The notes: generated by a model not told the origin, from the sequence alone. A DNA stretch of 64,000 nucleotides from Armatimonadota bacterium (GCA_012522575.1 JAAYKE010000028.1:575-64574); one strand, 5' to 3'. Positions 3,085 through 33,128 are shown, numbered from the stretch's first letter. Numbers and translations: made by a program.

Positions 3085-4104
3085 TTACATAACCACGTCG
3101 TCACCTGTATCGCGAATGTTGATTTCCCCTGCCTCGTCAAGCGATCTGGCGATATTGGATATGCGTCCCTGCGCCGCCTCTACGTCCCTTAATCTCACCG
3201 GGCCGCTCGAATCCATGTCCTCTTTCAGAGTCTCTACGGCGCGCTGAGACATATTTCGGAAGAACACATCCTTTACATTTTCCGAGGACCCTTTAAGGGC
3301 CAGTCGGAGGTCATCCTGAGGAACGTCGCGCAAAATGATCTGTATGGAGCGGTCGTCGAGATTGAGAATGTCCTCAAAAACGAACATCATCTCTTTGATT
3401 TCATCGGCGGTTTCCGAGGCAGTTTCGCTGAGGTACTCCATAATCTTCTTCTCAGTGCCTCGGTCAACGTTATTCAGGATACTGACGACCGCGTCGCTGC
3501 CTCCCACTTCGGCAAATGCGGCGTTATCGCTGGTCGACAGTCTCTGAGTCAGAATCTCGTCAATGCTGCGAACGATCTCCGGATCAGTCGGCTGCATCAT
3601 AGTCAGCCTCAAAGCGACTTCCCCTTGAGCCTGTTCCGGCAGTGCGCTCAATACGTGCGCGGCCTGCTCCGGATGAAGATGACCCAGCACCAGGGCCATG
3701 ACCTGCGGCCGCTCGCTTCTTATGCACTGCGCCAACTGTTGAGGAGAAACAGCCCTGAGCCATCTGAAACTTCCAACTCCGCTGCCGGATGTCAGACGAG
3801 ACAGAAGCTCTTTGGCTTTAGCATCGCCTACTACCTGTTCGAGGATGACACGAGCATAATCGGTGCCTCCCAAAATGGCTCCGTCAGCAAGCGATTTTTT
3901 GCACTCATCGAGAACCTGCGTACGCAGAGACGAATCGATGCGCTTCATCAAAACGATTTCCGCTGTCAGGCGTTCGATTTCATCCGAGGTAAGCTGCTGC
4001 AGGACGCTTGACGACTTTTCCGGGCCAAGCGAAACCAGCAGCACAGATGCCTTCTCGGTGCCTGTGAGGTTTATTGCAGGTTGTTTTGTCTCGTTTTCGG
4101 CCAA
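3085..4104 (-). CDS. fliG: Flagellar motor switch protein FliG homolog (stand-alone)
   Basis: Full-length three-domain FliG pattern: N-terminal LTGTEKASVLLVSLGPEKSSSVLQQLTSDEIERLTAEI, a middle domain, and C-terminal MFVFEDILNLDDRSIQIILRDVPQDDLRLALKGSSENVKDVFFRNMSQRAVETLKEDMDSSGPVRLRDVEAAQGRI. Confidence 0.85.
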   Translation of the reverse strand: MAENETKQPAINLTGTEKASVLLVSLGPEKSSSVLQQLTSDEIERLTAEIVLMKRIDSSLRTQVLDECKKSLADGAILGGTDYARVILEQVVGDAKAKELLSRLTSGSGVGSFRWLRAVSPQQLAQCIRSERPQVMALVLGHLHPEQAAHVLSALPEQAQGEVALRLTMMQPTDPEIVRSIDEILTQRLSTSDNAAFAEVGGSDAVVSILNNVDRGTEKKIMEYLSETASETADEIKEMMFVFEDILNLDDRSIQIILRDVPQDDLRLALKGSSENVKDVFFRNMSQRAVETLKEDMDSSGPVRLRDVEAAQGRISNIARSLDEAGEINIRDTGDDVVM

Positions 4105-15815: not shown

Positions 15816-17417
15816 ATGTTTGTTTCATCTGTGTGGCGTGACAGGCTGTCCCTGCTGAGCATTCTGGCAGTGGCCGCGGCTATGAGGTTCTGGGGTCTGG
15901 GGTGGGGCCTTCCCAACTTCCTGCGCTCATATTCATATCATCCTGATGAGTTTCTCGTCTTAGGCGCGGCGGGTTCGGCACTGGTTACCGGCTTGCCCGG
16001 TCTATACAACTACCCATCGCTGTTCATCTATCTGGTTGCACTGGCGATAGTATCTGTGGCCGCATATATACCGTCTCCGAGTATGGCGGAGATGTATCTG
16101 GCGGCCAGAGTCGTCACCGCAATAATGGGCGTATGCGCGATATTGCTCACCTATTGGGCGGCCAGACGATATTGGGGCAATCGCGAAGCCATCATTGCCT
16201 CCATAGCTCTGTGCATAGCTCCTCTGCACGTGCAGCATTCGCATTTCGCCACGGTGGATGTGCCTTGCACGGTCTTTGTTGCCGCCTGTCTGGGCTTTGC
16301 TGCTATGGTGTTTGGGCGCGGATCAATGCGCGATTACCTGCTCTGCGGGTTAATGGCAGGGTTGGCAGCAGGCACGAAGTATAATGCCGGACTGGTTGTG
16401 TTATCGTTGATTGCCGCTCATTTTCTTGGCAGCAGCCAGCGCAACGCAGGCTTGAGAAGGCTGCTTGCCGCTCTCGGAGGCGCATTGGCCGCGTTTGTCA
16501 TCTCCACTCCCGCAGTCATATTGCGACCCGGACATTTTTTTTACGGACTGACCTATGAACTCAGGCACGCATCCGAGGGCCACGGTTTGGTATTTGCCGG
16601 TACGGGTTCAGGTTTAATCTACACATTCACCTCATCTCTATGGTATGGTCTCGGCCCTGCGCTGGCCATATTCTTTTTGGCAGCATCGATCTATGCCGTA
16701 AGGACGAATAAGAAAGCATTGGTCATACTCGCGTTCGCGGTTCCGTATTACCTGCTTATCTCATTTTCACAGGTGCGGTTCGCGCGGTATGCCTTGCCGT
16801 TGTTTCCCGCCGCCGCCTTGCTGATAGCGTGGATGATCTGCGATATATGGACAAGGCTATCCAAACGCTGGCAATATGGATTGGCAGGTGCGTGTGCTGT
16901 CATATTATTGGGCACAATGTTATACACACTTGCACTGTGCCGCCTGTTTGTTATTTCCGACCCAAGGGATCGCGCTGCGGAATGGATTTTTGCAAATATC
17001 CCGACAGGCAGCGCCATTGGAGTGGCAGATGTCCCGTGGTTCTATTCCCCTCCCTACTCAAAAAACACAGGCTTTGGGACATTGCCACAGCGCGAAAAGG
17101 AAATGCGCAAGGCCCCATACTACCTGCAGTTGACCCGGTCAGGACAATATCGACACAGGCACTGGTGGGTAGTGTCGGATTATGAACTGGACGACGCGAC
17201 ACGGCTAAAGCGTGCATCGGAGCGTATGAGCGAATCCGACAGAAAAGAATGGGAGCGTCTGAGGGCTGCAAGGGAGGCTCTGGAAAAATACTACACGCGC
17301 CGCACATTCCGAAACTCTCTCAGCTTTTGCGGAATTTATCTCGGTTCTACCAGATCACTCCCTCATGATATGCGCTATTGCGCGCCGACTATATGGATAT
17401 ACGAGCGCAAAAAATGA
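15816..17417 (+). CDS. Glycosyltransferase family 39 (ArnT/PMT-like) polytopic membrane protein
   Basis: A 533-aa multi-TM protein with an early DE motif (YHPDEFLVLGAAGS) and ArnT-like topology. An RBS (gcagggag) is present. Confidence 0.8.
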   Translation: MFVSSVWRDRLSLLSILAVAAAMRFWGLGWGLPNFLRSYSYHPDEFLVLGAAGSALVTGLPGLYNYPSLFIYLVALAIVSVAAYIPSPSMAEMYLAARVVTAIMGVCAILLTYWAARRYWGNREAIIASIALCIAPLHVQHSHFATVDVPCTVFVAACLGFAAMVFGRGSMRDYLLCGLMAGLAAGTKYNAGLVVLSLIAAHFLGSSQRNAGLRRLLAALGGALAAFVISTPAVILRPGHFFYGLTYELRHASEGHGLVFAGTGSGLIYTFTSSLWYGLGPALAIFFLAASIYAVRTNKKALVILAFAVPYYLLISFSQVRFARYALPLFPAAALLIAWMICDIWTRLSKRWQYGLAGACAVILLGTMLYTLALCRLFVISDPRDRAAEWIFANIPTGSAIGVADVPWFYSPPYSKNTGFGTLPQREKEMRKAPYYLQLTRSGQYRHRHWWVVSDYELDDATRLKRASERMSESDRKEWERLRAAREALEKYYTRRTFRNSLSFCGIYLGSTRSLPHDMRYCAPTIWIYERKK

Positions 17418-18304
17418 TTGACCTGCACATACAACAATTTCTGGATTATGCCGTCATAGAACGCCGGCTTTCAGCCAAAACTCAGCAGGCGTATGGAAGC
17501 GACCTGTCTCAGTTCGCCTCATATCTCAAAGATGCCGGTATAAAAAAGGCCGGCAAAATCGACGAAAATACCCTGCTTGGTTATGCGGATATGCTCACCG
17601 CGCAGCAACTGCGGCCAACCAGCCTGGCCCGAAAGATGACCGTGGTGCGCAGTTTCATTAAATATCTCATAGGGTTAGGGCATGTATCCAATAGTTGTCT
17701 CGATAGCATCCCGAACTCTCGCCCTCCCCGCGTTTTGCCGAAACATCTCAATGTGGACGAGATCGCCCGCCTTCTTTCGGCTCCAGATATATCAAAAAGC
17801 ATCGGCCTGCGCGATCGGGCAATGCTGGAGACCCTTTACGCCACCGGCTTGCGCGTATCCGAACTGATTAACCTCAAAATAGACGATGTTAACCTAAAGA
17901 TGGGCTTTGTGCGCTGCGTCGGCAAGGGCAACAAGGAACGCATCGTGCCGATAGGTGAGATCGCAATACAACTGATAAATTCCTACATCGCAAGCGCAAG
18001 GGCGGAATTTACAAAGCTCGAACGATCGGAATATCTGTTCCTCAACTATAAAGGCAAGCCGATGACGAGGGGAATGTTTCATACCATTGTGAAAAAATAT
18101 GCGCTGTTGGCGGGCATAGACAGGCCGATCAGCCCGCACATGCTGCGTCACAGCTTCGCCACGCATATGCTCGAACGAGGAGCGGACCTGCGAAGCCTGC
18201 AGGAAATGCTGGGTCACGCGGGGATTGCAACAACTGAGCTTTACACACACGTAACCCGCGACCATTTGCGCGAAATATATAAGGAGGCTCACCCCAGGGC
18301 ATGA
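17414..18304 (+). CDS. xerD: Tyrosine recombinase XerC/XerD
   Basis: An N-terminal SAM-like core-binding domain and a C-terminal catalytic domain: ...HMLRHSFATHMLERGADLRSLQEMLGHAGIATTELYTHV (R...HxxR...Y). The ATGA overlap couples it with the upstream gene. The XerC versus XerD assignment is not resolvable by eye. Confidence 0.85.
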   Translation: MIDLHIQQFLDYAVIERRLSAKTQQAYGSDLSQFASYLKDAGIKKAGKIDENTLLGYADMLTAQQLRPTSLARKMTVVRSFIKYLIGLGHVSNSCLDSIPNSRPPRVLPKHLNVDEIARLLSAPDISKSIGLRDRAMLETLYATGLRVSELINLKIDDVNLKMGFVRCVGKGNKERIVPIGEIAIQLINSYIASARAEFTKLERSEYLFLNYKGKPMTRGMFHTIVKKYALLAGIDRPISPHMLRHSFATHMLERGADLRSLQEMLGHAGIATTELYTHVTRDHLREIYKEAHPRA

Positions 18305-20629: not shown

Positions 20630-22474
20630 ATGACACAAAAAACCGATCAAAATACTGCGGTAGCGGAACACGATACGCAAAAAAAGAAAATCACCCTTAC
20701 TATTGACGGTCAGGCGCTGACTGTCCCGGAAGGCACAACGATAATGCAGGCCGCAAAGAAGCTGGCCATTCATATTCCGCATATATGCTATCACCCGCAG
20801 TTGCACCTCGAAGGCTCCTGCCGCGTATGTTTAGTCGAGGTCGAGGGGATGCGAAATCCGGTGCCGTCTTGCAGCTATCCCGTGTTCGAAGGGATGGTCG
20901 TTCATACAAATTCCCCGGAAATACGGGAGATTCGCGCAACGATTATCGAGTTGTTGCTGGCTAATCACCCTATGGATTGTCAGACTTGCGAGCGCGATGG
21001 CAACTGCGAACTGCAATACCTGGCCTATATTTCCGGCGCTCGTGAGCGGCCTTATGAGGGCGAAAAGAAGCACAACGAGAAGGATTTCAGCTACGTTTCG
21101 GTTGTCAGAGACCCGGACAAGTGCATCCTCTGCGGACGATGCGTGCGCGTGTGCGCCGAAGTGCAGGGCGTGTCGGCTTTGGGCTATATCCATCGCGGCT
21201 TCAAAACATTCGTTGGCCCGGCATATAATGGCCCGTTTGCAGAAAGCGTGTGCATCGCCTGCGGCCAGTGCATCAACGTCTGCCCGGTGGCAGCATTTTT
21301 GGAAAGAGACCACACAAAAGACGTTATGGCGGCAATCGCCGACCCTGACAAACACGTGATCGTTCAGATAGCTCCCAGCGTTCGAGCTTCCATTGGCGAG
21401 GGATTCAACATCGCACCGGGTCTGCCTATGACCGGCCAGGCGGTGGCGGCCCTGCGCAGGCTTGGGTTTGATGAGGTATTCGACACCCAGATGGGCGCGG
21501 ATGTTACGATTATGGAGGAGGGCACCGAATTCGTCAAACGGCTCAACGGCGAAGGCCCGCTTCCTCTCATCACCAGTTGTTCTTCTGCGTGGATGAAGTT
21601 CGCCGAGCATTTCTATCCGGATTTGCTTGAGAATATCTCCAGCGCAAAGTCCCCGATGAGCATGCTTGGCTCGCTGATCAAAACCTATTATGCCGAGCGC
21701 AAGGGGATCGATCCGTCAAATATATTTACCGTTGGCGCGATGTGTTGCACGGCCAAGAAGTTTGAGGCGGCAAGGCCGGAGCAGCAGCTTGACATCGACG
21801 GCCAGCTTATGCCCTCCATTGACCGCGTAATCACCACGCGTGAGCTGGTTTGGATGATCAAAAACGCGGGGTTGGATTTTGCTCAGTTGCCTGCCGAGGA
21901 TTTCGATCCTGTGCTTGGAATCTCGACAGGGGCCGGTGCGCTGTTCGGAGCCACGGGCGGCTTGGCTGAGGCGGTCTATCGCACAGCATATTATCTGCTC
22001 ACCGGCGAAACTCTGGCCGAAGTGGTCGTAGAGGAAGTTCGCGGCATTGCCAAAGGCATCAAAACCTGGATAGCGCATATCGGGGACAGGTCTATAAAGG
22101 TCGGCGTTGCCCATGGCCTGGGCAATGCGCACAAGCTTCTCGGAATGGTTCGCAGAGGTGAGGGTGATTTCCACTTCATCGAAATTATGGGTTGTCCGGG
22201 AGGATGTATCGGAGGGGGCGGCCAGCCATACGCAAGAGCGGGAGAAGCAATGCCGCTGGATATCGAGACGCTCAAAAAACGAGCCGAGGCGCTGCGGGCT
22301 ATTGATGCAGGCAAGACCCTCAAACGATCCTATGAAAACCCTGATGTTGTGCGGGTTTATAAAGAATATCTGGGTGAGCCGAACAGTGAGCTGGCGCATA
22401 AGTTGTTGCATACAAAATACAAACCGCGCCTGCCTTTGGGCGTATGGAACCCGGACGTGATGCGAAACGACTAA
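20630..22474 (+). CDS. hydA: [FeFe]-hydrogenase catalytic subunit, M3-type architecture (2Fe-2S + His-ligated 4Fe-4S + 2x[4Fe-4S] + H-domain) with non-canonical L1/L2 motifs
   Basis: An N-terminal CRVC...C Fer2, then HPMDCQTCERDGNC, then CILCGRCVRVC and CIACGQCINVCP, then an H-domain with ITSCSSAW (L1), AMCCTAKKFEA (L2) and EIMGCPGGCIGGGGQP (L3). Confidence 0.85.
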   Translation: MTQKTDQNTAVAEHDTQKKKITLTIDGQALTVPEGTTIMQAAKKLAIHIPHICYHPQLHLEGSCRVCLVEVEGMRNPVPSCSYPVFEGMVVHTNSPEIREIRATIIELLLANHPMDCQTCERDGNCELQYLAYISGARERPYEGEKKHNEKDFSYVSVVRDPDKCILCGRCVRVCAEVQGVSALGYIHRGFKTFVGPAYNGPFAESVCIACGQCINVCPVAAFLERDHTKDVMAAIADPDKHVIVQIAPSVRASIGEGFNIAPGLPMTGQAVAALRRLGFDEVFDTQMGADVTIMEEGTEFVKRLNGEGPLPLITSCSSAWMKFAEHFYPDLLENISSAKSPMSMLGSLIKTYYAERKGIDPSNIFTVGAMCCTAKKFEAARPEQQLDIDGQLMPSIDRVITTRELVWMIKNAGLDFAQLPAEDFDPVLGISTGAGALFGATGGLAEAVYRTAYYLLTGETLAEVVVEEVRGIAKGIKTWIAHIGDRSIKVGVAHGLGNAHKLLGMVRRGEGDFHFIEIMGCPGGCIGGGGQPYARAGEAMPLDIETLKKRAEALRAIDAGKTLKRSYENPDVVRVYKEYLGEPNSELAHKLLHTKYKPRLPLGVWNPDVMRND

Positions 22475-22502
22475 GCATCATTATCAGGACACTTAATTAA
22501 CT

Positions 22503-22531
22503 GGCCGGGGTCTGTCCCGGCCACACAAATT
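22503..22531. repeat. GC hairpin, a partial copy of the dispersed repeat head (ggccggg-gtctgtc-ccggcc acacaaa)
   Basis: A perfect 7-bp palindromic stem directly after the hydA stop. The same ggcYgg...ccRgcc-RCAC-RAAC head starts the repeat copies at 22646 and 41402. It may double as the hydA terminator. Confidence 0.45.
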
Positions 22532-22645
22532 TCCGAAAATCGCGAAAGCCCGAAATAAGCGAAACCCGGAAAAGGGAAGGGAAAAAGCAGATTCCTCGGC
22601 ATTCGCCTCGGAATGACAATTTACCTGACGCATTCAGGCGCAATG

Positions 22646-22850
22646 GCTGGGGTGCATATCCCGGCCACACGAACTATGTCATTTCGAATGAAGTGAGAAA
22701 TCTGATTTTTTCGATGTCCGATGTCCGAAGTTCGAGCCGGTATCGCAAGGGGGTGCGCCACCCATCGTACGAAATCTGCTTTTACGGGAAACCGCAAAAC
22801 CCTCACAATATGCCTTCTAACCTCTAACTTCCAACCTCTAACCTCTAAAA
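22646..22850. repeat. Dispersed intergenic repeat, copy A (hairpin head, ~95-nt conserved core, CYAACYTC-rich tail)
   Basis: The core cacgaactatgtcatttcgaatgaagtgagaaatctgattttttcgatgtccgatgtccgaagttcgagccggtatcgc is ~90% identical to 41421-41504. The tail ctaacctctaacttccaacctctaacctctaaa resembles 41520-41549. Confidence 0.65.
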
Positions 22851-23136
22851 AGTTTAGCTCGGAACCTATTGACTTCTCCTCATATCTGACGTACATTGCC
22901 ATAATGGGATTCGCATACAATTGATTGTGTGATTAATCGATGTATGCGCCAATAATCTTAATAAGGCGCCTCGGATTAACAAGCTGAACGTGTTATAAGC
23001 AAAGCGAACATTCTGCTTTATTGGCAACTTAAAGCAAGTTTTTGTTATGCCTCAACCAACTGGTAATCATTTTTAACCAAAGCGATTGCGAGTCTGTTGT
23101 TAGCTGTGGCGTTGAAATTCTTTGGGGGTAGTGCAA

Positions 23137-26100
23137 ATGACAATGCAGCGCGTTTTATTGTATGCGCTCTGCGCGGTTCTTCTCGTTTCTGGTTTTGCCT
23201 ATGCCGATTTGGCTAAAAAACCTCTCCCGTTTTCTAATGTGCAGCCGTGGGACTACGAACTAGGCCCGATATTTGAGGCTGCATCTGCCAGATATCAGGT
23301 GCCTTTGCCGTTGCTTTTGGCATTAGGCCACTTCGGCAGCGCCTTCGAGAACCGGGGAGATTCTCCGACTATCGAGGGCGGATATGGAGTGATGGCTCTT
23401 CGTCAGAATGATATGGGAGGCAATTCCCTGGCCGAGGCAGCAGCTCTTACGGGCGTATCCGAGGAAGACCTCAAAACCAATGCCGAGCTTAATATTATGG
23501 GCGCGGCTGCTGTTTTGGATGCTTATGCCAAGCAACTGCAGGTCGATCGGACCGCCGGTGTTGATGCGTGGCTTGATGTCATCATCAAATACGCGGCCAT
23601 AGACAAAATCGACGAAGATAATCCGGTTCCGGTGTTCAACCGGATGTTTGCAATGGAGGTATATCAAAAGTTGCAGGCCGGAGTCGATACGACGAACTCT
23701 ATGGGCGAGACGTTCAACGCCTCTGCTCAGAATATCGGCTCAATCGACCTTGCCTCACTTGAGCCACCCGGAATGAAAGCCAACGTCACCGGCTATTCAG
23801 GGGCCACATGGTATCCGGCTGCTACCTGCAATTATTCGGCTGTTAGCACAAATAAGAGCGTATTTGTCGTGCACACAATCGAAGGCACCGCATCGGGATG
23901 TCTGGGTTGGTTTAGAAACTGCGCCGCGGAGACATCCTGCCACTATGTTGCATCTGAGGCGGGAGGCATCTGGCAGTGCGTCGACGAATGGCACAGGGCG
24001 TGGCATGTAGGTTGCGCGAATAATTATTCCATCGGATGCGAGCACGAAGGTTACGCAGCATCAGCAAGCCACCCAAAGACTATGTACGATGCCTCTGCGC
24101 TGCTTGCGCGAGACGTCTGCAACAGATGGGGTATCCCCAAAACACACAATCCATGCCAGCATTCAATTCTTGGACACGTCGATGTGAACAACTGCTGGTG
24201 CGGCCCGGGTCACTGGGACCCTGGCGCGGGATGGGACTGGACATACTACATAAATGCCGTAAACGGCACGACTTATGTCAACCCTCCGTATCTGTTCGGG
24301 AGCGGTGCGGAAGGTTGGACAGCCGGCAACAGCGTGTGGTCCAACGGCCTTGTCCATACCGGCTCTGATTGGCGCGGGTCCATATATTTTGACCAGACAG
24401 GCCCGGACTGCTATATATACAGCCCTGAGACCAACTTCACTGGCTCATCTCCGCAGGTACTCAACGTTGACTTCTACCCGCAGGCCGGCACCGGCACAGA
24501 CCACGATATGCAACTGCACTGGAGGACCGCCGCGGAAGGCTCGTTCTCTGCCGACAAGGCCAGCCCGCTTACGGGTTATCAAGGTCAAAATACCTGGAGG
24601 ACGGTCAACCTCAGTATCAATAGCTCAAAATGGACGGGCCAGACAATCAAACAGCTCAGGCTCGACTTCGATAACAACAATCAATCGACCAGATACATCG
24701 TCAACCATGTTGTGCTGCAAAACGCGCTGATCTGGCCGTTTAACAGCGACGTAAACGGATGGACTGCCGGTCACTCGTTGACGGAGACCTGGCACACAGC
24801 CGGTGGCTGGCCGGGGTGTCTGGTTACGGATCAGACCGGCAACGACGCATATATATATAGTCCGACCCTTTCCGGCGCCGGCCTGCCGTACAACTACATA
24901 GGCGGCGTAAATGACTGGGTTAAGGTTCGGGTGTATCCGCAGAACAGTTCGGGTACGGCCCACGACCTGCGAGTATACTGGATATACGATGGCGACGGCG
25001 CCTGGAATGACACCAAATCCGTCCCTGTAACCTACACTGGCAAGAATGGGTGGGTCGATGTCTACGTCCCGGTTGGGCAAAGCACTTACTGGGAGGGCAA
25101 GCACATGACCCGGCTTCGAGTCGACTTCGACGAGGTCAGCCAGGGCACTCGCTGGATTGTCGACGAGATATCAATTGTGCAACTCGGCAAGGACTCCACC
25201 GCCCCGACAGTTCCGACCGGGCTGAATGCAACAGCCGTATCCGGCAGCATTGTCGATCTAAGCTGGACAGCATCGACTGACGCTACTGGAGTCAACGGAT
25301 ACAAGATATTCCGAAACGGAACCCAGATAGCCACCAGCATTTCACCGTCATACAGGGATACCTCCTGTCAGGCGCAGACGACCTATTCATATACTGTCAG
25401 CGCCTACGACTCGGTTGGCAACAACTCGGCCCAGAGCGCGGCCAAGAGCGTGACTACTCTGGCCCCTGACAATCAGCCGCCTACCGTGCCCGCAAATCTG
25501 CGCGTAACGGGGACTACAACGTCCAGCATCTCCCTTGCGTGGAATGCTTCGACGGACAATATAGGCGTGGTCGGCTATCGCATCTATCGCAACGGCGCTC
25601 AAGTCGGCACAGCCACCGGGACTACATACAATGACACCGGGTTGGCTCAGTATTCGACTCATACATACGAAGTCGATGCCTATGATGCCACTCCGAACTA
25701 TTCTGCCAAGAGCGCTTCGGTACTGGGGACAACAGTCGCACTGGTCTTCCAGGACGGCTTTGCGAACCTCAACAACTGGGTTCTTGATCCGGTTGCGGGC
25801 AATAACGTAATGCCCACGCTATCCACTGCTCAAAATCACGGCAGCATATCCGGCGCCAATTCGTTGTATTTTTCCGACGATGCTCCGCACTGGGTATATC
25901 ATGACTTCTCAGACGAGCTTACTTCCGGCGGCTACAGAGCGGGTATTCTCTCCGGCTGGATGTATGACAACGCCGTAAGCAACATGAGAATCGCCTTAAG
26001 AGCATATATGTATGATGCTGCCGGCAATGCCACGGGCATGTATTGGATTGGCGTGACGAACGGCAACCCGCCGAACATCCCGCTCAAATATATGGCCGCT

Positions 26101-27447
26101 GTGTATAATAGCGGTTGGCAATACTTCGACCTTGGCGATCGCACCGAGGGTTGGCATAGATTCGCAATCGAGGTTCTGCCATATACTGGCTCAAACGACC
26201 TCAAGTTCTATATAGATGGAGCTTTGAAGCTGACTACCAACCAGCCTCCTACTGCCGCCAGCTCGACTCTCAAGCGCACGTATCTGGGCTACAACTACAC
26301 GCCCAACCAGCCAACTTACTGGGATGATATTGTTCTGGAGTCAGTTCCTCCGCTTGCGCCGACAGGTGTTTCAGGCACAGCTTTGTCAACTTCTGCCATC
26401 AGGTGGAACTTCACCGACAAGGCCAACAACGAGATAGGCCATCGGGTCTACAACGGCGCTACCAAGGTAGCCCAGCGCGAGGAGTTCGATATCAATTTCG
26501 TCGATGAGACCGGCCTGGCAGCTAACACGACCTACAACCGAACGGTCAAGGCGTATGCGGGCATCCTTGAAAGCCACGCCGCTGCCGGCAGTGGAGTTAC
26601 GCTTTCGGTTCCGCCGAGCGTCTCTAATGTGACCTGTGACAAAGATACCAACACCTGGTATGCTGATGGCAACTTCACATTCACCGCAGTCGGCGGATTT
26701 GGCGCAGGCAAGGTGGATCATTATCAATTCGCGTGGACCAAACAGGCCACGCATACGTGGGCAGGTTCTGAAGCGAGTTGGTCGAGCGGAACTTTGGTTC
26801 AGACTGCGACATCTACGGGCGGTTGGTATCTGCACTTGCGAGGATTCAACTCCGCCAACGTAGCTAATGGCACTCTTGATCCTGGCCCGTTCAACTTCGA
26901 CAGCGACAGCGTTGCTCCGCAGATCAATTCTGTATCAGTGACGCCTTCTATGGTCGCCAGCGGGGATGCGGTTCACGTGACTGTCGATGCCACTGACAAC
27001 ATCGGCGTTACCAGCGTCAAGGCCAACGGCGTTTCTCTGACTAACTCCGGCGGCAACATCTGGACCGGTGACGTCGCTGCTTTGGGCGGCCTGGGCATCC
27101 ATGAGGTGAACATTGTCGCCGAGGACGCCGCAGGTAACACTGCGACCGATTCGTCCGGTTCTTATCTGACTGCCCTTATCCGTGGCGCTTCCAACAAGGC
27201 CGCCCTGGGAGTTGAGATGAACGCGGCTTGCGCTATATATCTCTTCAAGTTCTGGGGCAGGGTAGCAGAGGTCGATGACAATACATTCACCCTCGACGAT
27301 GGCTCCGGTTCGCCTATTACGGTGAACGCTTCCGGCTACAAGAGTGTGATATCGACAGGTGACTACGCGGCCGCTCGAGGTATGCTCAGCATATCAGGCA
27401 GCGACCGCGCCATTCAGAGCGAGGTTAGCTGGATAACTAAGTTCTAG
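23137..27447 (+). CDS. Giant secreted multidomain protein (1437 aa): signal peptide, degenerate lysozyme/SLT-like segment, Amidase_2 (PGRP-type N-acetylmuramoyl-L-alanine amidase), duplicated ~140-aa beta-rich module, 2x FN3, LamG/ConA-like, FN3-like/Ig-like, and a C-terminal OB-fold-like module
   Basis: The Amidase_2 pattern is VVHTIEG...SCHYVAS...AWHVGCANNYSIGCEHEG...GHVDVNNCWCGPGHWDPG. The FN3 pattern is LSWTASTDATGVNGYKIFRNG...YSYTVSAYD. The C-terminus reads LFKFWGRVAEVDDNTFTLDDGSGSPITV. The start was chosen at ATG 23137, which follows the ggggg RBS (the ORF-track TTG is at 23122). Confidence 0.85.
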   Translation: MTMQRVLLYALCAVLLVSGFAYADLAKKPLPFSNVQPWDYELGPIFEAASARYQVPLPLLLALGHFGSAFENRGDSPTIEGGYGVMALRQNDMGGNSLAEAAALTGVSEEDLKTNAELNIMGAAAVLDAYAKQLQVDRTAGVDAWLDVIIKYAAIDKIDEDNPVPVFNRMFAMEVYQKLQAGVDTTNSMGETFNASAQNIGSIDLASLEPPGMKANVTGYSGATWYPAATCNYSAVSTNKSVFVVHTIEGTASGCLGWFRNCAAETSCHYVASEAGGIWQCVDEWHRAWHVGCANNYSIGCEHEGYAASASHPKTMYDASALLARDVCNRWGIPKTHNPCQHSILGHVDVNNCWCGPGHWDPGAGWDWTYYINAVNGTTYVNPPYLFGSGAEGWTAGNSVWSNGLVHTGSDWRGSIYFDQTGPDCYIYSPETNFTGSSPQVLNVDFYPQAGTGTDHDMQLHWRTAAEGSFSADKASPLTGYQGQNTWRTVNLSINSSKWTGQTIKQLRLDFDNNNQSTRYIVNHVVLQNALIWPFNSDVNGWTAGHSLTETWHTAGGWPGCLVTDQTGNDAYIYSPTLSGAGLPYNYIGGVNDWVKVRVYPQNSSGTAHDLRVYWIYDGDGAWNDTKSVPVTYTGKNGWVDVYVPVGQSTYWEGKHMTRLRVDFDEVSQGTRWIVDEISIVQLGKDSTAPTVPTGLNATAVSGSIVDLSWTASTDATGVNGYKIFRNGTQIATSISPSYRDTSCQAQTTYSYTVSAYDSVGNNSAQSAAKSVTTLAPDNQPPTVPANLRVTGTTTSSISLAWNASTDNIGVVGYRIYRNGAQVGTATGTTYNDTGLAQYSTHTYEVDAYDATPNYSAKSASVLGTTVALVFQDGFANLNNWVLDPVAGNNVMPTLSTAQNHGSISGANSLYFSDDAPHWVYHDFSDELTSGGYRAGILSGWMYDNAVSNMRIALRAYMYDAAGNATGMYWIGVTNGNPPNIPLKYMAAVYNSGWQYFDLGDRTEGWHRFAIEVLPYTGSNDLKFYIDGALKLTTNQPPTAASSTLKRTYLGYNYTPNQPTYWDDIVLESVPPLAPTGVSGTALSTSAIRWNFTDKANNEIGHRVYNGATKVAQREEFDINFVDETGLAANTTYNRTVKAYAGILESHAAAGSGVTLSVPPSVSNVTCDKDTNTWYADGNFTFTAVGGFGAGKVDHYQFAWTKQATHTWAGSEASWSSGTLVQTATSTGGWYLHLRGFNSANVANGTLDPGPFNFDSDSVAPQINSVSVTPSMVASGDAVHVTVDATDNIGVTSVKANGVSLTNSGGNIWTGDVAALGGLGIHEVNIVAEDAAGNTATDSSGSYLTALIRGASNKAALGVEMNAACAIYLFKFWGRVAEVDDNTFTLDDGSGSPITVNASGYKSVISTGDYAAARGMLSISGSDRAIQSEVSWITKF

Positions 27448-27467
27448 CTAATATATCGGCTATCTAC

Positions 27468-27498
27468 GCGGCCCGTCTTTGATATAGAGGCGGGCCGC
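27468..27498 (+). terminator. GC stem-loop after giant protein 1 (weak terminator candidate)
   Basis: An 8-bp stem gcggcccg/cgggccgc with a 15-nt loop and no clear U-tract. Confidence 0.4.
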
Positions 27499-27690
27499 AG
27501 TTATATGTCTAAGAAATGACCAGGTAAAAATACTGAGTTGACGTCAGGAACGTTGTAAGGCATACTAAAGCTAGAGTAATTATATTTTAGCGAATGCAAG
27601 CTGTATGGCCTGGACGCACCTCCTCGTGTTGTCTGTAACATGGGCCTCTACTACGTTGTTTGCAGGCTATGACTTGAAGGTGGGGGCGGT

Positions 27691-30600
27691 ATGAGACGGT
27701 TACAAGCAAGACTTGTTTTACTTTTTTGCGTAGTATTACTTACAGTATTTGCGGTCACGGCGCTGCAGGCCAGCGTGGTGGCCGTTCGTTTTTATGCACA
27801 CGGGGATCTCACTGCGGTCAATCGAGCAGTATCCAATGATGTTGCGGCTGCCGAGGCGGCAGTGCGTGCATTGGTTGCAGGGCCATTTGTGGAAGAGAGC
27901 GCGGTAGGCATCTATTCCCAAATCCCGGCTGGAACTAAAATCAAGAAGCTATCGATAGCGGGCAGCGCTGCGGAGATCGATCTCTCTTCAGAGATTCTGA
28001 CCGGCCTGGATGAAGAGAAATTGACCGACATCTTCAACCAGTTCCGCTCCACTGCCGGCGATTTTCCATCCATTACCTCAATCAAACTCACCTGTAATGG
28101 CAAGATTCTGTCTTCATATCTGCCCTCCGCTCCCGATATTGGAGAGCCTGCGCCGCCACTGATCAAGGGCAATGCGGTTGGCCTGAGCGGCAAGTATATC
28201 TGCGTTGGGCCATCGCATGGTCGCTTCTGGAACGGCAGCGGCTGGTATTGGCAGCGCTCTGACCCATGCGGGCTCGGCGAAGCCATTCTGGAGGACACCA
28301 ACAGCATCAGGCTGGTTCAGTATTTGAAGCAGTATGTTACTCAGGACAGCGGGATATTTGCCAGCGCGAGGGAGTTGGATGAAAGCAAATGCTGCCATCC
28401 CAGTACCGGTTTGGCCTGGTGGAAAATGTGTTCACAGTCGTATTTGCGCAATGCCGGCGTGCCCTGTTCCGTATGGGCGAGCTACACAGGCAACTGCGGC
28501 GCGGATAATGCTGCAGGCCGCAGCAGTGATGATATTCGCTGCAGACCTCTCTACGCGGACTGGCTGGGTTATCATATCTACATCGCCATGCACACCAACG
28601 CTGGCGGAGGAACCGGTACCGAGACTTTCTATGATGCAGCGATGGAAAAACCGGCCCACGTTACCAACAGCTATAACCTGGCCAACGCTGTAAATAATGG
28701 AATGGTCAACACCATCCGCAACACTTTCCCCGGCGAGTCGGGCTGGGCTAACAGAGGTGTCAAGAATGGGAACGGCGCCTACGGCGAAATTCGCATTCCC
28801 AACCGACCTGCAATCCTCGTTGAGTTGGGTTTCCACGACCATTGCACAAGGGATGCCGTCTACCTGACAAACGACTTCTTCCGTTCGGTCGCTATGTGGG
28901 GAGCTTACAGCGGGATCTGTGCATACTTCGGCAACACTCCGACCTGGGGCAAATATTCCTGCGAACTTGTCTCAAACACAATTCCATCCACAATGACCAC
29001 AGGCCAGACCTACAGCGCGACTATCACCTACCGCAACCGCGGCGTGGTCTGGATGAGCGCATATAACTTCAAGGTTGGCGCAGTATCAGCCAACGACCCT
29101 CTGATGACTACTCGGCTTTATCCCGTTTCCGGAACGATCAAGCCGGGCAGCAACGCAACTTTCACAATTTCCCTGAAGGCTCCGGCTACCGCAGGGACCT
29201 ATACCACCCAGTGGCAGATGATTCGTGAAGGTTACGAGTGGTTCGGTCCAACGCTTACGAAAAGCGTCACCGTCGTTGCTGCTACCGGCAACATCACCGG
29301 CACAGTTCGCAACGCTGCCGACAACAGCGTTATTTCGGGCGCAACAGTGGCGGTAACAGGCGGTTCATCGGCGACAACAAACGCCTCTGGAGTATACACA
29401 ATCAGCGGCGTCAATCCCGGAACATACACGCTTACTGTAAGCAGGACTGATTTTGTTACACAAACTGCGTCCGTTTCAGTGACCGCAGGAGCGACAACCA
29501 CCAAAGACTTCTCACTGCTGTCGTCTCTTCCTCCGACCGGCGCTATAAAGATCAACGCCGACGCCGAGTATACCAACAACTCCGCAGTGACACTGACCCT
29601 ATCCTCGCCGGATGCTGTTCAGATGCAGTTCAAAAACGAATCTGGTGACTGGAGCGCGTGGGAGAATTATGCGGCGACAAAGGCGTGGAACCTGAGCGCT
29701 GATGACGGCACAAAGACTGTCTTCGTTAAGTATAAGAGCGCCGCCAACATTGAATCCACTGCCACAATCAGCGCCACAATAGTCCTTGATACCACTCCGC
29801 CCACCGGCGCTCTTGAGATCAATTCAAACGCACAATACACCAATGCCGTGGGTGTGACGCTTACGCCATCATCGTCAGACGCCGCTCAGATGCAGTTCAA
29901 AAACGAATCCGGCGATTGGAGTGTGTGGGAGACTTACGCGACTGCCAAGGCCTGGTCTATTACGGCGGGCGATGGGACAAAAACAGTCTATGCCAGGTTC
30001 AAAGATGTTGCCGGCAACGTATCTACTGATACCATCAGCGCAACAATCACCCTCGACATAGTGCCTCCGACAGGCGCTATGGTCATCAATTCAGATGACA
30101 TCTACGCAAACTCCACATCCGTTATATTGACGTTGTCATCTCCGGATGCAGCTCAAATGCAGTTCAAAAACGAGTCGGGTTCCTGGAGCGCGTGGGAAGC
30201 CTATGCCACTAGCGCATCTTGGACTATGAGCGCTGGTGACGGTACAAAAACCGTATTCGTGCAGTTCAAAGACGCTGCGGGCAATGTATCCACTGGTACA
30301 ATTAGTGACAATATAATTCTGGACACAGTTCCGCCAACAGGCTCTATCGTTATCAATAGTCACGCCATATACGCTGTTGATGCAGATGTAACATTGGCTC
30401 TGTCTTCGCCGGATGCGGTTCAGATGCAGTTCAAAAACGACTCTGGCGAATGGAGTGCGTGGGAGAACTATGCCACCAGTAAGGCGTGGACCTTGAGCGC
30501 CGATGACGGGACAAAAACTGTCTATGTCCAGTTCAAAGACATCGCAGGCAACGTCTCCGTTGACACGATAAGCGACACCATAATTCTTGACACCACCCCG

Positions 30601-33078
30601 CCTACCGGCGCTTTGGTTATAAACTCAGGCGCGCAATACACCAACAGCCAGGCGGCGACTCTGACCCTGTCCTCTACGGATGCGGCTCAGATGCAGTTCA
30701 AGAACGAGTCCGGCCCGTGGACAGCCTGGGAGACCTACGCCACGAGCAAGCCCTGGACACTCAGTTCGGTCGACGGGGTGAAAACAGTATTCGTTCGATT
30801 TAAGGACGAAGCAGGCAATGTCACTACTGAGACAATCAGCGCCGACATAACCCTGGACACAGTTCCGCCGACTGGCGCAATAGAGATCAACGGCGGCGCT
30901 AACTATACCAATAACCAGTCGGTCACTCTCGCCCTGTCATCAGCAGATGCCGTTCAGATGCGATTCAAAAACGAGAATGGCGCGTGGAGCGAATGGGAGA
31001 CCTACTCTGCGACCAGGTCGTGGACGCTGAGCGCAGGCGAAGGCGTAAAAACTGTTACCGTTCAGTATAAAGATGCGGCGGGCAACGTCTCTGTTGGAGT
31101 AATAAGCGACTCTATAATCTTCGACATCACCCCGCCCACCGGCTCGATATTGATCAATTCCGGCAATGCCTACGCCAATAACCAGTCGGTCACTCTCACA
31201 CTGTCATCTCCGGATGCGGCTCAGATGCAGTTCAAGAACGAGACTGGTGATTGGAGCGAATGGCAGACCTATTCGACTGCCAAAGCCTGGACTCTGACCG
31301 GCGGCGAGGGAACTAAGACCGTCAGCGTCCGGTTCAAGGACGAGGCTGGCAACGTATCTGTCGGTGTGATCAGCGATACCATCATATTGGACACCATTCC
31401 GCCTACAGGCACAATCGTCATCAACGACGATGCAGTCTATTCCAACACTCTGACCGTTGACTTGGCCCTGTTCTCGGCAGACGCCGTGCAGATGCGATTC
31501 AAGAACGAGGTTGGCCTGTGGAGTGAATGGGAAGCCTACGCACAGACCAAAGAATGGGATCTTCGCACCGGCGACGGTCTAAAGACTGTTTACGTTGAAT
31601 ATATGGACATAGCCGGCAATACGTCCGGTGAATCCGTCAGCGACACTATCACCCTGGTCACAGTTCCTCCGTCGATCAACAGCGTGACTTCACCTGCTCT
31701 TACAAACAAGCAGCCGATCGCGGTCGATTACAACGTCTCCGAGGGCATCTGCGGCCTGAAGAAGGTCACGCTGTGGGCGAAGAAAGGCTCAGGCGGAAAC
31801 TGGACCAACACGGGTATGACTTCAACTAACCCAAGTGGTTACTTTAACTATATGCCCGATGGCGATGCGACTTACTACTTCGACATAGTAGTAGAAGATA
31901 TTGCCAACAACGTTTCCCAGACACCAGTCGGCGGCGGTCGAACCAGCACAAATTATGACGTCACTTCGCCGACCGGCACGATTCTCATCAACGGAGGCGC
32001 ACTCTACGCCAACAATGTATGGGTCACTCTGACGCTTTCGTCAGCAGATGCCTATCAGATGAGATTCAAAAACGAGTCAAGCTCTTGGGGAAGCTGGGAG
32101 TTCTACTCCACAACCAGGGTCTGGTCGCTGAGTTCCGGCGACGGCGTCAAGACCGTCTATGTTCAGTTCAGAGATGAAGCAGGCAACGTCTCTCTCAACA
32201 GAATCAGTGACGTAATTCTGGACACCACTCCGCCCACTGGCACTATCACAATCAACGGCGGAGCGATGTACACCAACAGCACATCCGTCACGCTTACTAT
32301 GTCTGCGTCGGATGCTGTCCAGATGCGCTTTAAGAACGAGACCGGTTCATGGACGTCCTGGGAAGCTTATGCGACCAGTAAGCAGTGGACCTTAAGCTCA
32401 GGTGATGGCCTCAAGACTGTCTATGTGCAGTTTATGGATATCGCGGGCAACGCCTCTTCGTCGAGGATCAGCGATATAATCCTTGATACCACACCTCCGA
32501 GCATATCCATAGGCTCTCCTTCCGTTGCGTCAACTACCAGCGGCCCTGTGACCTATCAAATCAACTTCACCGGAGCCAATGCGGTTACGCTGTCGGCTGC
32601 TGGTGTCGTTTTGAATACTACAGGCTCCGCAAACGCCGGCTCAGTGGCAGTGAGCGGATCCGGCACGGCCAGTCGATTAGTGACTCTGTCCGATATAACC
32701 GGCAGCGGCGCGATCGGTATCTCCATCGTGGCTGGAGCAGCCAGCGATATTGCCGGCAACCTGTCGCCTGGCGTCGGCCCTGGAGCCACTTTCGATGTGT
32801 TGAACGTGCTCCATTCCTACGGCTTAAGTAACAAGGCGGCCTGGGATCCGATTATTAAAACCGCATCGTACAACCAGTTGTTTACGATTTGGGGCAGGGT
32901 TATCTCTCCGGTGGACGACAACAGCTTCGAGATCGATGACGGCTCCGGTATGCCCATAAAGGTTATGCTTTCCGGCCACGGGTTTAGCACTGCTGACTAT
33001 GTTTCGGTGACGGGTTCTCTCGATGTCAGCGGACCTGCGCCGGTTATGAATGCTATATCGGTGAATAAACAAAACTGA
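27691..33078 (+). CDS. Giant secreted multidomain protein (1795 aa): signal peptide, GerMN/Gmad2-like N-domain (tentative), Amidase_3 (MurNAc-L-Ala amidase), 10 tandem ~90-aa Ig-like repeats with one unrelated inserted domain, and a C-terminal OB-fold-like module shared with the upstream giant protein
   Basis: The Amidase_3 pattern is ICVGPSHG...YIAMHTNAGGGTGTETFY...NRPAILVELGFHDH. The repeat unit is PPTGAIxINxxAxYTNxxxVTLTLSSPDAxQMQFKNESGxWSxWExYATxKxWxLSxGDGTKTVxVxFKDxAGNVS. The C-terminus reads LFTIWGRVISPVDDNSFEIDDGSGMPIKV. A strong RBS (aaggtggggg) precedes the ATG at 27691. Confidence 0.85.
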   Translation: MRRLQARLVLLFCVVLLTVFAVTALQASVVAVRFYAHGDLTAVNRAVSNDVAAAEAAVRALVAGPFVEESAVGIYSQIPAGTKIKKLSIAGSAAEIDLSSEILTGLDEEKLTDIFNQFRSTAGDFPSITSIKLTCNGKILSSYLPSAPDIGEPAPPLIKGNAVGLSGKYICVGPSHGRFWNGSGWYWQRSDPCGLGEAILEDTNSIRLVQYLKQYVTQDSGIFASARELDESKCCHPSTGLAWWKMCSQSYLRNAGVPCSVWASYTGNCGADNAAGRSSDDIRCRPLYADWLGYHIYIAMHTNAGGGTGTETFYDAAMEKPAHVTNSYNLANAVNNGMVNTIRNTFPGESGWANRGVKNGNGAYGEIRIPNRPAILVELGFHDHCTRDAVYLTNDFFRSVAMWGAYSGICAYFGNTPTWGKYSCELVSNTIPSTMTTGQTYSATITYRNRGVVWMSAYNFKVGAVSANDPLMTTRLYPVSGTIKPGSNATFTISLKAPATAGTYTTQWQMIREGYEWFGPTLTKSVTVVAATGNITGTVRNAADNSVISGATVAVTGGSSATTNASGVYTISGVNPGTYTLTVSRTDFVTQTASVSVTAGATTTKDFSLLSSLPPTGAIKINADAEYTNNSAVTLTLSSPDAVQMQFKNESGDWSAWENYAATKAWNLSADDGTKTVFVKYKSAANIESTATISATIVLDTTPPTGALEINSNAQYTNAVGVTLTPSSSDAAQMQFKNESGDWSVWETYATAKAWSITAGDGTKTVYARFKDVAGNVSTDTISATITLDIVPPTGAMVINSDDIYANSTSVILTLSSPDAAQMQFKNESGSWSAWEAYATSASWTMSAGDGTKTVFVQFKDAAGNVSTGTISDNIILDTVPPTGSIVINSHAIYAVDADVTLALSSPDAVQMQFKNDSGEWSAWENYATSKAWTLSADDGTKTVYVQFKDIAGNVSVDTISDTIILDTTPPTGALVINSGAQYTNSQAATLTLSSTDAAQMQFKNESGPWTAWETYATSKPWTLSSVDGVKTVFVRFKDEAGNVTTETISADITLDTVPPTGAIEINGGANYTNNQSVTLALSSADAVQMRFKNENGAWSEWETYSATRSWTLSAGEGVKTVTVQYKDAAGNVSVGVISDSIIFDITPPTGSILINSGNAYANNQSVTLTLSSPDAAQMQFKNETGDWSEWQTYSTAKAWTLTGGEGTKTVSVRFKDEAGNVSVGVISDTIILDTIPPTGTIVINDDAVYSNTLTVDLALFSADAVQMRFKNEVGLWSEWEAYAQTKEWDLRTGDGLKTVYVEYMDIAGNTSGESVSDTITLVTVPPSINSVTSPALTNKQPIAVDYNVSEGICGLKKVTLWAKKGSGGNWTNTGMTSTNPSGYFNYMPDGDATYYFDIVVEDIANNVSQTPVGGGRTSTNYDVTSPTGTILINGGALYANNVWVTLTLSSADAYQMRFKNESSSWGSWEFYSTTRVWSLSSGDGVKTVYVQFRDEAGNVSLNRISDVILDTTPPTGTITINGGAMYTNSTSVTLTMSASDAVQMRFKNETGSWTSWEAYATSKQWTLSSGDGLKTVYVQFMDIAGNASSSRISDIILDTTPPSISIGSPSVASTTSGPVTYQINFTGANAVTLSAAGVVLNTTGSANAGSVAVSGSGTASRLVTLSDITGSGAIGISIVAGAASDIAGNLSPGVGPGATFDVLNVLHSYGLSNKAAWDPIIKTASYNQLFTIWGRVISPVDDNSFEIDDGSGMPIKVMLSGHGFSTADYVSVTGSLDVSGPAPVMNAISVNKQN
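29530..32490 (+). repeat. Coding tandem repeat array: 8 consecutive ~270-273-bp units (29530-31660), then 2 more (31962-32490) after a ~300-bp unrelated insert
   Basis: Units begin with cc(t/g)ccgac(c/a)ggc and share the conserved core gatgc(g/t)g(c/t)tcagatgcagttcaa(a/g)aacga. By eye, nucleotide identity between units is ~80-85 percent. Confidence 0.85.
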
Positions 33079-33096: not shown

Positions 33097-33128
33097 GGCC
33101 CGCTTCTGACCCAGCAGCGGGCTTTTTT
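33097..33128 (+). terminator. Rho-independent terminator after giant protein 2
   Basis: Stem gcccgct/agcgggc with an 11-nt loop, followed by tttttt. Confidence 0.85.

Follow-up and report, generated by a model that had tools for sequence, protein, structure and literature searches.

Two adjacent genes in a 64-kb stretch of DNA from a metagenome-assembled genome (MAG) of an uncultured anaerobic-digester member of the Armatimonadota (the window, on which all positions are counted) encode giant, predicted secreted proteins that carry different peptidoglycan amidase domains near their N-termini and end in the same C-terminal module. This module is not specific to amidases; many secreted proteins that are otherwise unrelated also end in it. 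According to the ORF list, open reading frame (ORF) A, located at 23137..27447, encodes a multidomain Amidase_2 protein of 1436 residues when read from the ATG at 23137 (1441 residues from an alternative TTG start at 23122), and ORF B, located at 27691..33078, encodes a multidomain GerMN-Amidase_3 protein of 1795 residues. Both lie on the plus strand, as do all the features of the two genes given below. The pair had been noticed in an earlier reading of the DNA alone (the sequence-only reading), and the two ORFs are present as described there. On balance, we favor an interpretation in which A and B would be surface-displayed or released amidases that digest foreign peptidoglycan, and in which their shared tail, predicted to adopt an OB fold, would be a phylum-specific anchoring or sorting module.

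The shared C-terminal tail

The tail occupies positions 27157..27444 in A (residues 1341–1436) and 32803..33075 in B (residues 1705–1795). The two copies are homologous over a module of about 95 residues (BLASTP E 1e-13), and they were matched by the tail profile (A, E 1e-41) and by a tail hidden Markov model searched on the window ORF (B, E 9e-39). The AlphaFold2 (AF2) model of the A tail, with a predicted local distance difference test score (pLDDT) of 92.7, is a five-stranded closed beta-barrel that matches solved OB domains. The motif WG[KR]V...F.[LVI]DDGSG.P[VI].V...GDY is strongly conserved. The top structural neighbors of the tail are the heterodimerising OB domains RPA14/RPA32, Stn1/Ten1, and RMI2, and the periplasmic YgiW is found among the bacterial ones. 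The sequence-only reading had recognized the common ending of the two proteins and likened it to BOF/YgiW-type folds; the fold class stands, but membership of the BOF family does not, as the B tail scores 16.3 bits (E 0.011) with PF04076 against a cut-off of 25.8, the A tail gives no match, and TIGR00156 yields 14 bits against 108. Besides scoring far below these cut-offs, the tail differs from the BOF/YgiW-YdeI proteins in being the terminal module of large multidomain proteins, with a conserved motif of its own, and in being found in Armatimonadota MAGs. Moreover, RPA14/32, Stn1, and RMI2 matched it at least as well, the RMI2 match to the B tail being itself weak (E 0.0024). No Pfam or NCBIfam model covers the tail family (Pfam-A copy with models to 2025; NCBIfam of June 2026). 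We consider the tail a well-supported domain family, absent from both collections, that appears to act like a C-terminal targeting module on an OB fold. Binding of nucleic acids or extracellular DNA, an idea taken from the RPA-like neighbors, is unlikely, since the mean net charge of the tail is −0.8 and its most conserved loop (DDGSG) is acidic.

To obtain the distribution of the tail an exhaustive profile search was needed, as a word-indexed protein search returned only 3 matches. Run against 1.84 billion representatives, the profile identified at least 500 clusters (50% identity) at E≤1e-3, 220 of them at E≤1e-10. The tail ends no more than 15 residues from the C-terminus in 171 of 184 proteins, with a median distance of 1 residue. 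The passengers of 107 tail proteins include LVIVD, RCC1, FG-GAP, NHL, and PQQ propellers, subtilases (Peptidase_S8), a GH25 lysozyme, Peptidase_C39_2, FGE-sulfatase, and PATR repeats; an M6 metalloprotease likewise bears the tail. An N-terminal signal region, assessed with a simple hydrophobic-window test, was found in 79 of the 103 full-length tail proteins. The named members of the tail clusters come from Armatimonadota only, and their labels read 'hypothetical', 'DNRLRE domain-containing', 'M6 family metalloprotease domain-containing', or 'chitodextrinase'. The tail is thus no peculiarity of the amidase pair for which the sequence-only reading had described it; it is widespread at the C-termini of Armatimonadota proteins of many kinds. 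In genomes that, where the record gives a phylum, are Armatimonadota, a sizeable part of the secreted proteome bears this tail. Defining the family would improve the annotation of hundreds of 'hypothetical' proteins and provide a simple predictor of the surface and secreted proteome in the phylum.

We also scanned one genome per species for tail loci with a single pattern, F[TES][LVI]DDGSGxP, derived from a 10-sequence tail alignment, which under-samples the family. The scan returned 42 loci, and all the records that name a phylum are Armatimonadota except for one contig, whose bin is labelled Acidobacteriaceae and which may be a binning error. One genome of 3.05 Mb holds six tail-pattern loci, two of them overlapping, and two or three tail genes stand in tandem at 17 of 44 loci. 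Six of the representative matches (P0224, P0248, P0253, P0254, P0183, and P0164) depart from the single C-terminal copy: the OB module lies about 100–200 residues from their N-terminus or is duplicated or triplicated, which could reflect gene-call fusions or real variants.

The same position is occupied by other modules in homologs of the amidase heads. Planctomycetes/Phycisphaerae homologs of both heads (P0093, P0074, P0263, P0266, and P0290) carry duplicated Dockerin_1-like motifs, DxDxDGDVDxxDFxxFQxCxxGP, at the C-terminus (PF00404 gave E 4e-5 for one of them, just above the cut-off, and the others fell just below it), and other Armatimonadota homologs (P0008 and P0028) carry Golvesin_C. 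The C-terminal slot of these heads is a swappable targeting position, filled by the OB tail, by dockerin-like motifs, or by Golvesin_C, and, as these modules replace one another on homologous heads from different phyla, nature has provided an experiment on the retargeting of secreted enzymes. An anchoring or targeting role for the tail, as the sequence-only reading had suggested, is what the data favor; should it turn out to sort or anchor proteins, the few C-terminal targeting domains known so far would gain a new fold.

The tail could also be an assembly module and not a wall or membrane anchor, docking its cargo in the manner of a dockerin into a scaffold, or forming OB-OB pairs of the RPA14/32 or Stn1/Ten1 kind, to build a multi-enzyme wall-degrading complex. 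That its top structural neighbors work by heterodimerising, that dockerin-like modules sit at the same position in the Planctomycetes homologs, and that tail cargo is diverse and its genes are in tandem all speak for this alternative, which is compatible with the reading of the heads that we favor. We nevertheless regard it as unlikely: we identified no protein that, like a scaffold, carries repeated receptor modules, the C-terminal helix of RPA-type trimerisation is missing from the AF2 model of the tail, and no neighbor family recurs across the 44 loci, where tail genes are flanked by common families only (GFO/IDH/MocA oxidoreductases, transporters, a GntR regulator, and a prepilin-like protein).

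Amidase heads and beta-sandwich stalks

The catalytic domain of A is located at 23860..24261 (residues 242–375). Residues 242–363 match Pfam Amidase_2 (PF01510) at E 2e-23, with 83.6 bits against a gathering cut-off of 26, the corresponding profile matches AmpDh2/AmpD at E 1e-9, and the AF2 model matches AmpD at a Foldseek E of 4e-8. His246, Tyr270, and His347 are invariant across 26 homologous heads (alignment A6), and Cys355, eight residues after the second His, is nearly so. We take these four residues to be the equivalents of the zinc ligands and catalytic Tyr of T7 lysozyme (His17/Tyr46/His122/Cys130) and of PGRP-type amidases, so that A has the His/His/Cys ligands and the Tyr that characterize Amidase_2. 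With this intact-looking active site and an N-terminal signal sequence, A is predicted to be a Sec-exported, zinc-dependent N-acetylmuramoyl-L-alanine amidase. It shares its fold, zinc site, ligands, and Tyr with AmpD, AmpDh2/3, AmiD, T7 lysozyme, the endolysins PlyL/XlyA, and LytA. However, the known members of the family are small, single- or two-domain proteins, whereas A is a secreted protein of 1436 residues in which the amidase stands behind an SLT-like domain without the canonical Glu and is followed by about ten beta modules and the OB tail.

This SLT/GH23-like domain, all-helical, is located at 23209..23766 (residues 25–210). A profile built from 18 homologs matches the catalytic domain of MltC, in MltC structures, at E 2.3e-5; the first ~190 residues of A are homologous to that domain, and the 'GLMQ'-type motif of the SLT/GH23 lytic transglycosylases (MltC, Slt70) is kept as 'GYGVMAL'. 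The A-type family differs from these enzymes at the catalytic residue of the E-S motif: Gly67 of A ('FGSAF'; family 'vGSaF') is aligned to the position where MltC has its catalytic Glu ('IESSF'), Gly is the family consensus at this column, and Glu71, four residues further on, is nearly invariant in the 26-homolog alignment. With Pfam SLT (PF01464), the single A sequence scores 17.1 bits (E 0.004), below the gathering threshold of 21.3. All this agrees with the degenerate lysozyme/SLT-like stretch that had been described before. In the AF2 model of residues 25–409 (pLDDT 83.9), the SLT-like part is helical, and the second half matches AmpD, phage endolysins, AmiA/AmiE, and LytA. Since the fold search with this two-domain head model returned amidase matches only, and none to SLT-type folds, support for the SLT-like fold comes from the sequence profile and the helical content. 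Most likely, the domain binds glycan strands rather than cutting them, although its catalytic residue may be shifted instead of lost.

In B, the Amidase_3 domain is located at 28183..28935 (residues 165–415) and is preceded by a GerMN (Germane) domain at 27835..28107 (residues 49–139; PF10646, E 1.9e-11, 45 bits against a gathering threshold of 23), in the order proposed by the sequence-only reading. Residues 278–409 match Pfam Amidase_3 (PF01520) at E 2.3e-9, with 38 bits against a cut-off of 27. The match covers only positions 49–172 of the 174 in the model because a Cys-rich insert of ~95 residues (approximately residues 203–296) splits the domain. A profile of 11 homologs matches CwlV (E 9.5e-8) and CwlD (E 2.8e-7) over the C-terminal half and LytH (E 2.7e-5) over the N-terminal half. 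His176, Glu201, His301, and Glu378, that is, the His/Glu/His zinc triad and the catalytic Glu of Amidase_3, are invariant in alignment A8 (columns H26, E51, H151, and E228) and at least 95% conserved in 70 homologs; His301 and Glu378 are aligned to CwlV, and His176 to the His of 'GHGG' in CwlD, the latter in a weak sub-alignment. Like A, B is therefore predicted, from an active site that looks intact, to be a Sec-exported, zinc-dependent N-acetylmuramoyl-L-alanine amidase. Its likeness to known Amidase_3 enzymes (CwlV, CwlD, LytH, AmiA/B/C, and Cwp6) extends to profile matches with CwlV, CwlD, LytH, and AmiC and to the invariant triad and Glu, but B differs from them in the insert between the second and third zinc ligands and in its length of 1795 residues, with ten Big_13-like repeats and the OB tail, and no AMIN, LysM, or SPOR targeting domain was found in it. 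The fusion of GerMN to Amidase_3 has already been noted for the Amidase_3 family, reportedly in the Pfam description of Germane and by Rigden & Galperin (2008).

The conservation of both active sites bears on the possibility that A and B are structural surface-layer proteins or adhesins, whose amidase-like domains bind peptidoglycan without cutting it. Long beta-sandwich arrays with Ig repeats do look adhesin-like, the canonical Glu has been lost from the SLT-like domain, and PGRP-type Amidase_2 domains can be non-catalytic binders. Nevertheless, in dozens of homologs from the two amidase families, the zinc ligands and catalytic residues that we checked show no or almost no variation, and neither the Pfam nor the NCBIfam scan gave a match to an SLH or S-layer family, which makes such a role very improbable.

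The stalks that link the heads to the tails consist of beta-sandwich modules. In A, two paralogous, family-less, beta-rich modules of ~150 residues (24289..25176, residues 385–680), in which an internal repeat, '...GWTAGNS/GWTAGHS...', was read from the sequence, gave nothing in Pfam at E≤1 except for weak SH3 noise. They are followed by two fibronectin type III domains (25186..25740, residues 684–868; Pfam fn3 E 4e-8), which match the FnIII of chitinase A1 in the PDB at E 3e-15 and, over residues 700–888, CbhB in NCBIfam. Next come a LamG/concanavalin-like module (25741..26346, residues 869–1070) and three further Fn3-like or Ig-like modules (26347..27156, residues 1071–1340), with weak matches on segments to fn3 (E 0.11) and Big_13 (E 0.0016). 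In B, an NBR1-like Ig domain (N_BRCA1_IG, residues 434–528, Pfam E 2.6e-7) and a CarboxypepD_reg domain (residues 535–609, E 9.3e-16) at 28990..29517 lead to a stalk at 29530..32493 made of eight consecutive Big_13-like repeats of 89 residues each (residues 614–1325), a unique beta module (1326–1424), and two more repeats (1425–1601). The repeats are in register at their PPTG motifs (Pfam Big_13 E 7e-22), but are too diverged at the DNA level for Tandem Repeats Finder, which found no match in B. A last Ig-like module, read from the sequence at 32494..32802 (residues 1602–1704), gave a weak HYR match only. The fibronectin and Ig-like components of the arrays in the sequence-only reading were thus recovered, while the LamG-like one is weakly supported (Laminin_G_3 E 0.0011, 19.6 bits, below the cut-off of 27.6).

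At the N-termini, a putative signal peptide was assigned to A at 23137..23205 (residues 1–23, MTMQRVLLYALCAVLLVSGFAYA, followed by D; score of the hydrophobic N-terminal window, 3.03), and a signal peptide or N-terminal anchor to B at 27691..27771 (residues 1–27, MRRLQARLVLLFCVVLLTVFAVTALQA, followed by S). Both were read by eye from the sequence.

Relatives, synteny, and the A–B locus

Heads of the A type (SLT-like plus Amidase_2, about 50% identity) form about 100–107 clusters at 90% identity, and heads of the B type (GerMN, Amidase_3, and NBR1-Ig) about 70–85, both in MAGs of Armatimonadota and Planctomycetes/Phycisphaerae. These relatives are annotated as hypothetical proteins or as N-acetylmuramoyl-L-alanine amidases. 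Orthologs in conserved synteny were found in at least two other genomes. One of these loci, L044, holds an MBL gene, the [FeFe] hydrogenase, an A ortholog (86% identical), a B ortholog of 1705 residues, and the TIM barrel gene. Between its A and B orthologs, at L044:14755-18051 (CAZBSI010000006.1), lies a third tail-bearing giant gene, which encodes a protein of 1098 residues with Peptidase_C39_2, fn3, and CBM96 domains. The catalytic domains add new members to known families, and the architecture, which the sequence-only reading called unrecognized, is indeed uncharacterized, yet it is common in these lineages.

The fetched parts of the 3.05-Mb genome hold about six B-like genes, several of them in tandem and most confirmed as tail-bearing, as well as several A-like paralogs. 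At loci L013, L018, and L024 (JBMNES010000001.1, CAZBSI010000007.1), three or more GerMN-Amidase_3 genes of ~1200 codons each run head to tail, and those that can be read through to a stop codon within the fetched stretch bear the tail. In these runs, secreted amidases have expanded markedly and locally within a genome of ~3 Mb. The nearest relatives of the window come from anaerobic digesters.

In its ATG form, A is identical to the deposited 'MAG: hypothetical protein GX139_02235 [Armatimonadetes bacterium]' (P0004). By contrast, a word-indexed protein search with the first 620 residues of B found no identical or near-identical entry, the best being 59% identical, so B may be absent from the public record of this MAG or called differently in it.

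A and B lie among housekeeping genes. Upstream are thrS-infC-pheST, genes for HD-domain proteins, a PMT_2 glycosyltransferase, an XerC/D-like recombinase, and an [FeFe] hydrogenase; downstream are genes for a xylose-isomerase-like TIM barrel, a PiT phosphate transporter, a PhoU-like protein, phosphoglucomutase, sugar kinases, and an ABC-2 transporter, as well as serS. A phage or mobile-element origin of A–B was rejected, as the flanks are housekeeping genes and the synteny is conserved. The window also contains genes for FliG, the flagellar motor switch protein (3085-4104, minus strand), for a tyrosine recombinase of the XerC/D type (17378-18304, plus strand), and for a [FeFe] hydrogenase of 614 residues (20630-22474, plus strand), a combination consistent with a motile, fermentative anaerobe.

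This chromosomal, syntenic setting would suit housekeeping autolysins, with A and B remodelling their own sacculus in daughter-cell separation, insertion of flagella or pili, or wall turnover, and the tail keeping them in the periplasm or at the wall. Amidase_3 and GerMN are typical of enzymes that act on the own wall (AmiA/B/C, CwlD, and GerM), and the YgiW found among the bacterial structural neighbors of the tail is periplasmic. We judge this improbable all the same. Known division amidases do not resemble proteins of 1436 and 1795 residues that have about ten Ig-like repeats in their stalk, and the fetched parts of the ~3-Mb genome hold about six B-like genes and several A-like ones. In addition, the tail is shared with subtilases, a GH25 lysozyme, and a large number of beta-propellers, proteins usually located at the surface or outside the cell, and the Planctomycetes homologs have dockerin-like ends.

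The sequence-only reading had further described the pair as a discrete unit, bracketed by terminators and with promoters of its own. A hairpin of 14 pairs, 9 of them GC, with a poor T-tract, was found by the terminator scan and in the sequence 3′ of A at 27468..27498, within the 243-nt A–B spacer (27448-27690), and is a possible terminator or attenuator. A site 3′ of B, at about 33098..33128, resembles an intrinsic terminator (GCCCGCT...AGCGGGC, then TTTTTT); it was not listed by the terminator scan, probably on account of its loop of more than 8 nt. Promoter-like matches at the locus numbered 11 against a shuffled expectation of 8.9 ± 3.8, which is no excess, and therefore promoters of its own cannot be claimed for it. 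Nor is the pair demonstrated to be a discrete unit, with a hairpin between A and B and a third gene standing between their orthologs in L044. No Rfam family was found in ORF A, in the region 5′ of it, or in the A–B spacer (best match, E 0.81).

The 662 nt immediately 5′ of A (22475-23136) contain no genes. Short direct repeats, CTTC(T/C)AACCTCTAA, are found there at 22814-22848, together with a number of short inverted repeats, and nothing in the stretch matched Rfam. The counterpart of this stretch in L044 is occupied by a methyltransferase gene and a helix-turn-helix (HTH) gene on the opposite strand.

Foreign peptidoglycan as a substrate and comparison with known systems

In the reading that we favor, each protein would be built of an N-terminal head, a beta-sandwich stalk, and a C-terminal tail. 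The A head would hold a glycan strand in its Glu-less SLT-like module beside the intact Amidase_2 domain, and the B head would combine GerMN, an intact Amidase_3 with its Cys-rich insert, and an NBR1-type Ig domain. The tail would take no part in the enzymology; it would tether its cargo to the surface of the producer, via an envelope polymer or a partner protein, or mark it for sorting. From the stalk geometry, the catalytic head might be held tens of nanometers off the cell, where it could strip stem peptides from foreign peptidoglycan, be it debris of dead cells or neighboring cells. A and B would then be part of a multi-paralog set of wall-harvesting enzymes. The domain identities, the conserved active-site residues, the modelled OB fold of the tail, and its C-terminal position, varied cargo, and presence in Armatimonadota MAGs are what the analysis shows; what we infer is that the proteins pass the outer membrane, that the tail anchors them, and that they act on foreign and not own peptidoglycan.

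A foreign substrate for the heads fits the report that operational taxonomic units (OTUs) of uncultured Armatimonadetes were enriched specifically, under anaerobic conditions, from digester sludge and paddy soil with M. luteus peptidoglycan as the sole substrate (PMC7511781). Several observations weigh against our reading. That enrichment is based on 16S, and its OTUs have no link to this MAG; an amidase by itself has no access to the wall of an intact diderm cell; no genes for peptidoglycan uptake or catabolism were found near A–B, which sit among housekeeping genes; and none of the 44 loci showed a conserved sorting or partner gene beside the tail genes.

The same heads might instead serve as antagonistic or predatory weapons against the walls of neighboring live cells, in concert with the proteases and the lysozyme that bear the tail; the tail would target them to the prey or to a contact-dependent display on the surface of the producer. 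The tandem expansion of wall hydrolase families, the Peptidase_C39_2 protein encoded in the same cluster at L044, the presence of the same tail on GH25 and S8 cargo, and long stalks that display the heads at their end would all suit this purpose. On the other hand, no immunity-like small genes stand beside A or B, the window holds no secretion-system or toxin-delivery genes, such weapons require access to the wall, which diderm prey denies, and the enrichment was obtained with purified peptidoglycan, so that scavenging fits it equally well. We hold this to be less probable still than the autolysins considered above.

Armatimonadota are widespread, yet next to nothing is known about how their anaerobic members make a living. 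Amidases of the A and B types are concrete candidates to express and assay, and, as the 16S enrichment study came without enzymes in hand, these families turn an ecological observation into testable enzymes. By analogy with known systems we would go one step further, though tentatively: the OB tail might be the cargo tag of an unrecognized sorting or surface-display system centered on the Armatimonadota, comparable to the C-terminal domain (CTD) of the type IX secretion system (T9SS) or to dockerin-cohesin pairs but on an unrelated fold, and the amidases with the tail-bearing proteases and lysozyme might form a surface 'murein-harvesting' apparatus. If true, this would explain how anaerobic Armatimonadota live on the peptidoglycan of other cells.

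The tail and the T9SS CTD of Bacteroidota cargo have much in common: each is a beta-rich module of 80–100 residues that stands at the extreme C-terminus of hundreds of unrelated Sec-exported proteins, is concentrated in one phylum, and occurs in many copies per genome. Their folds differ, the tail being an OB barrel and the T9SS CTD an Ig-like beta-sandwich. The T9SS CTD models (TIGR04183, PF18962) gave no match in the Pfam and NCBIfam scans of tails or whole proteins, and no T9SS genes were seen in the 64 kb of this genome or in the fragments of related genomes, with no test aimed at PorU/PorV/SprA. Compared with dockerins, the tail has an unrelated fold without the duplicated Ca-binding loop-helix motif, does not match Dockerin_1 (PF00404), and had no cohesin-like partner identified for it. 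Nevertheless, just as dockerins do on cellulosomal and planctomycetal enzymes, the tail forms a small terminal module on many enzymes, and it occupies the very slot that dockerin-like motifs fill on the amidase heads of Planctomycetes.

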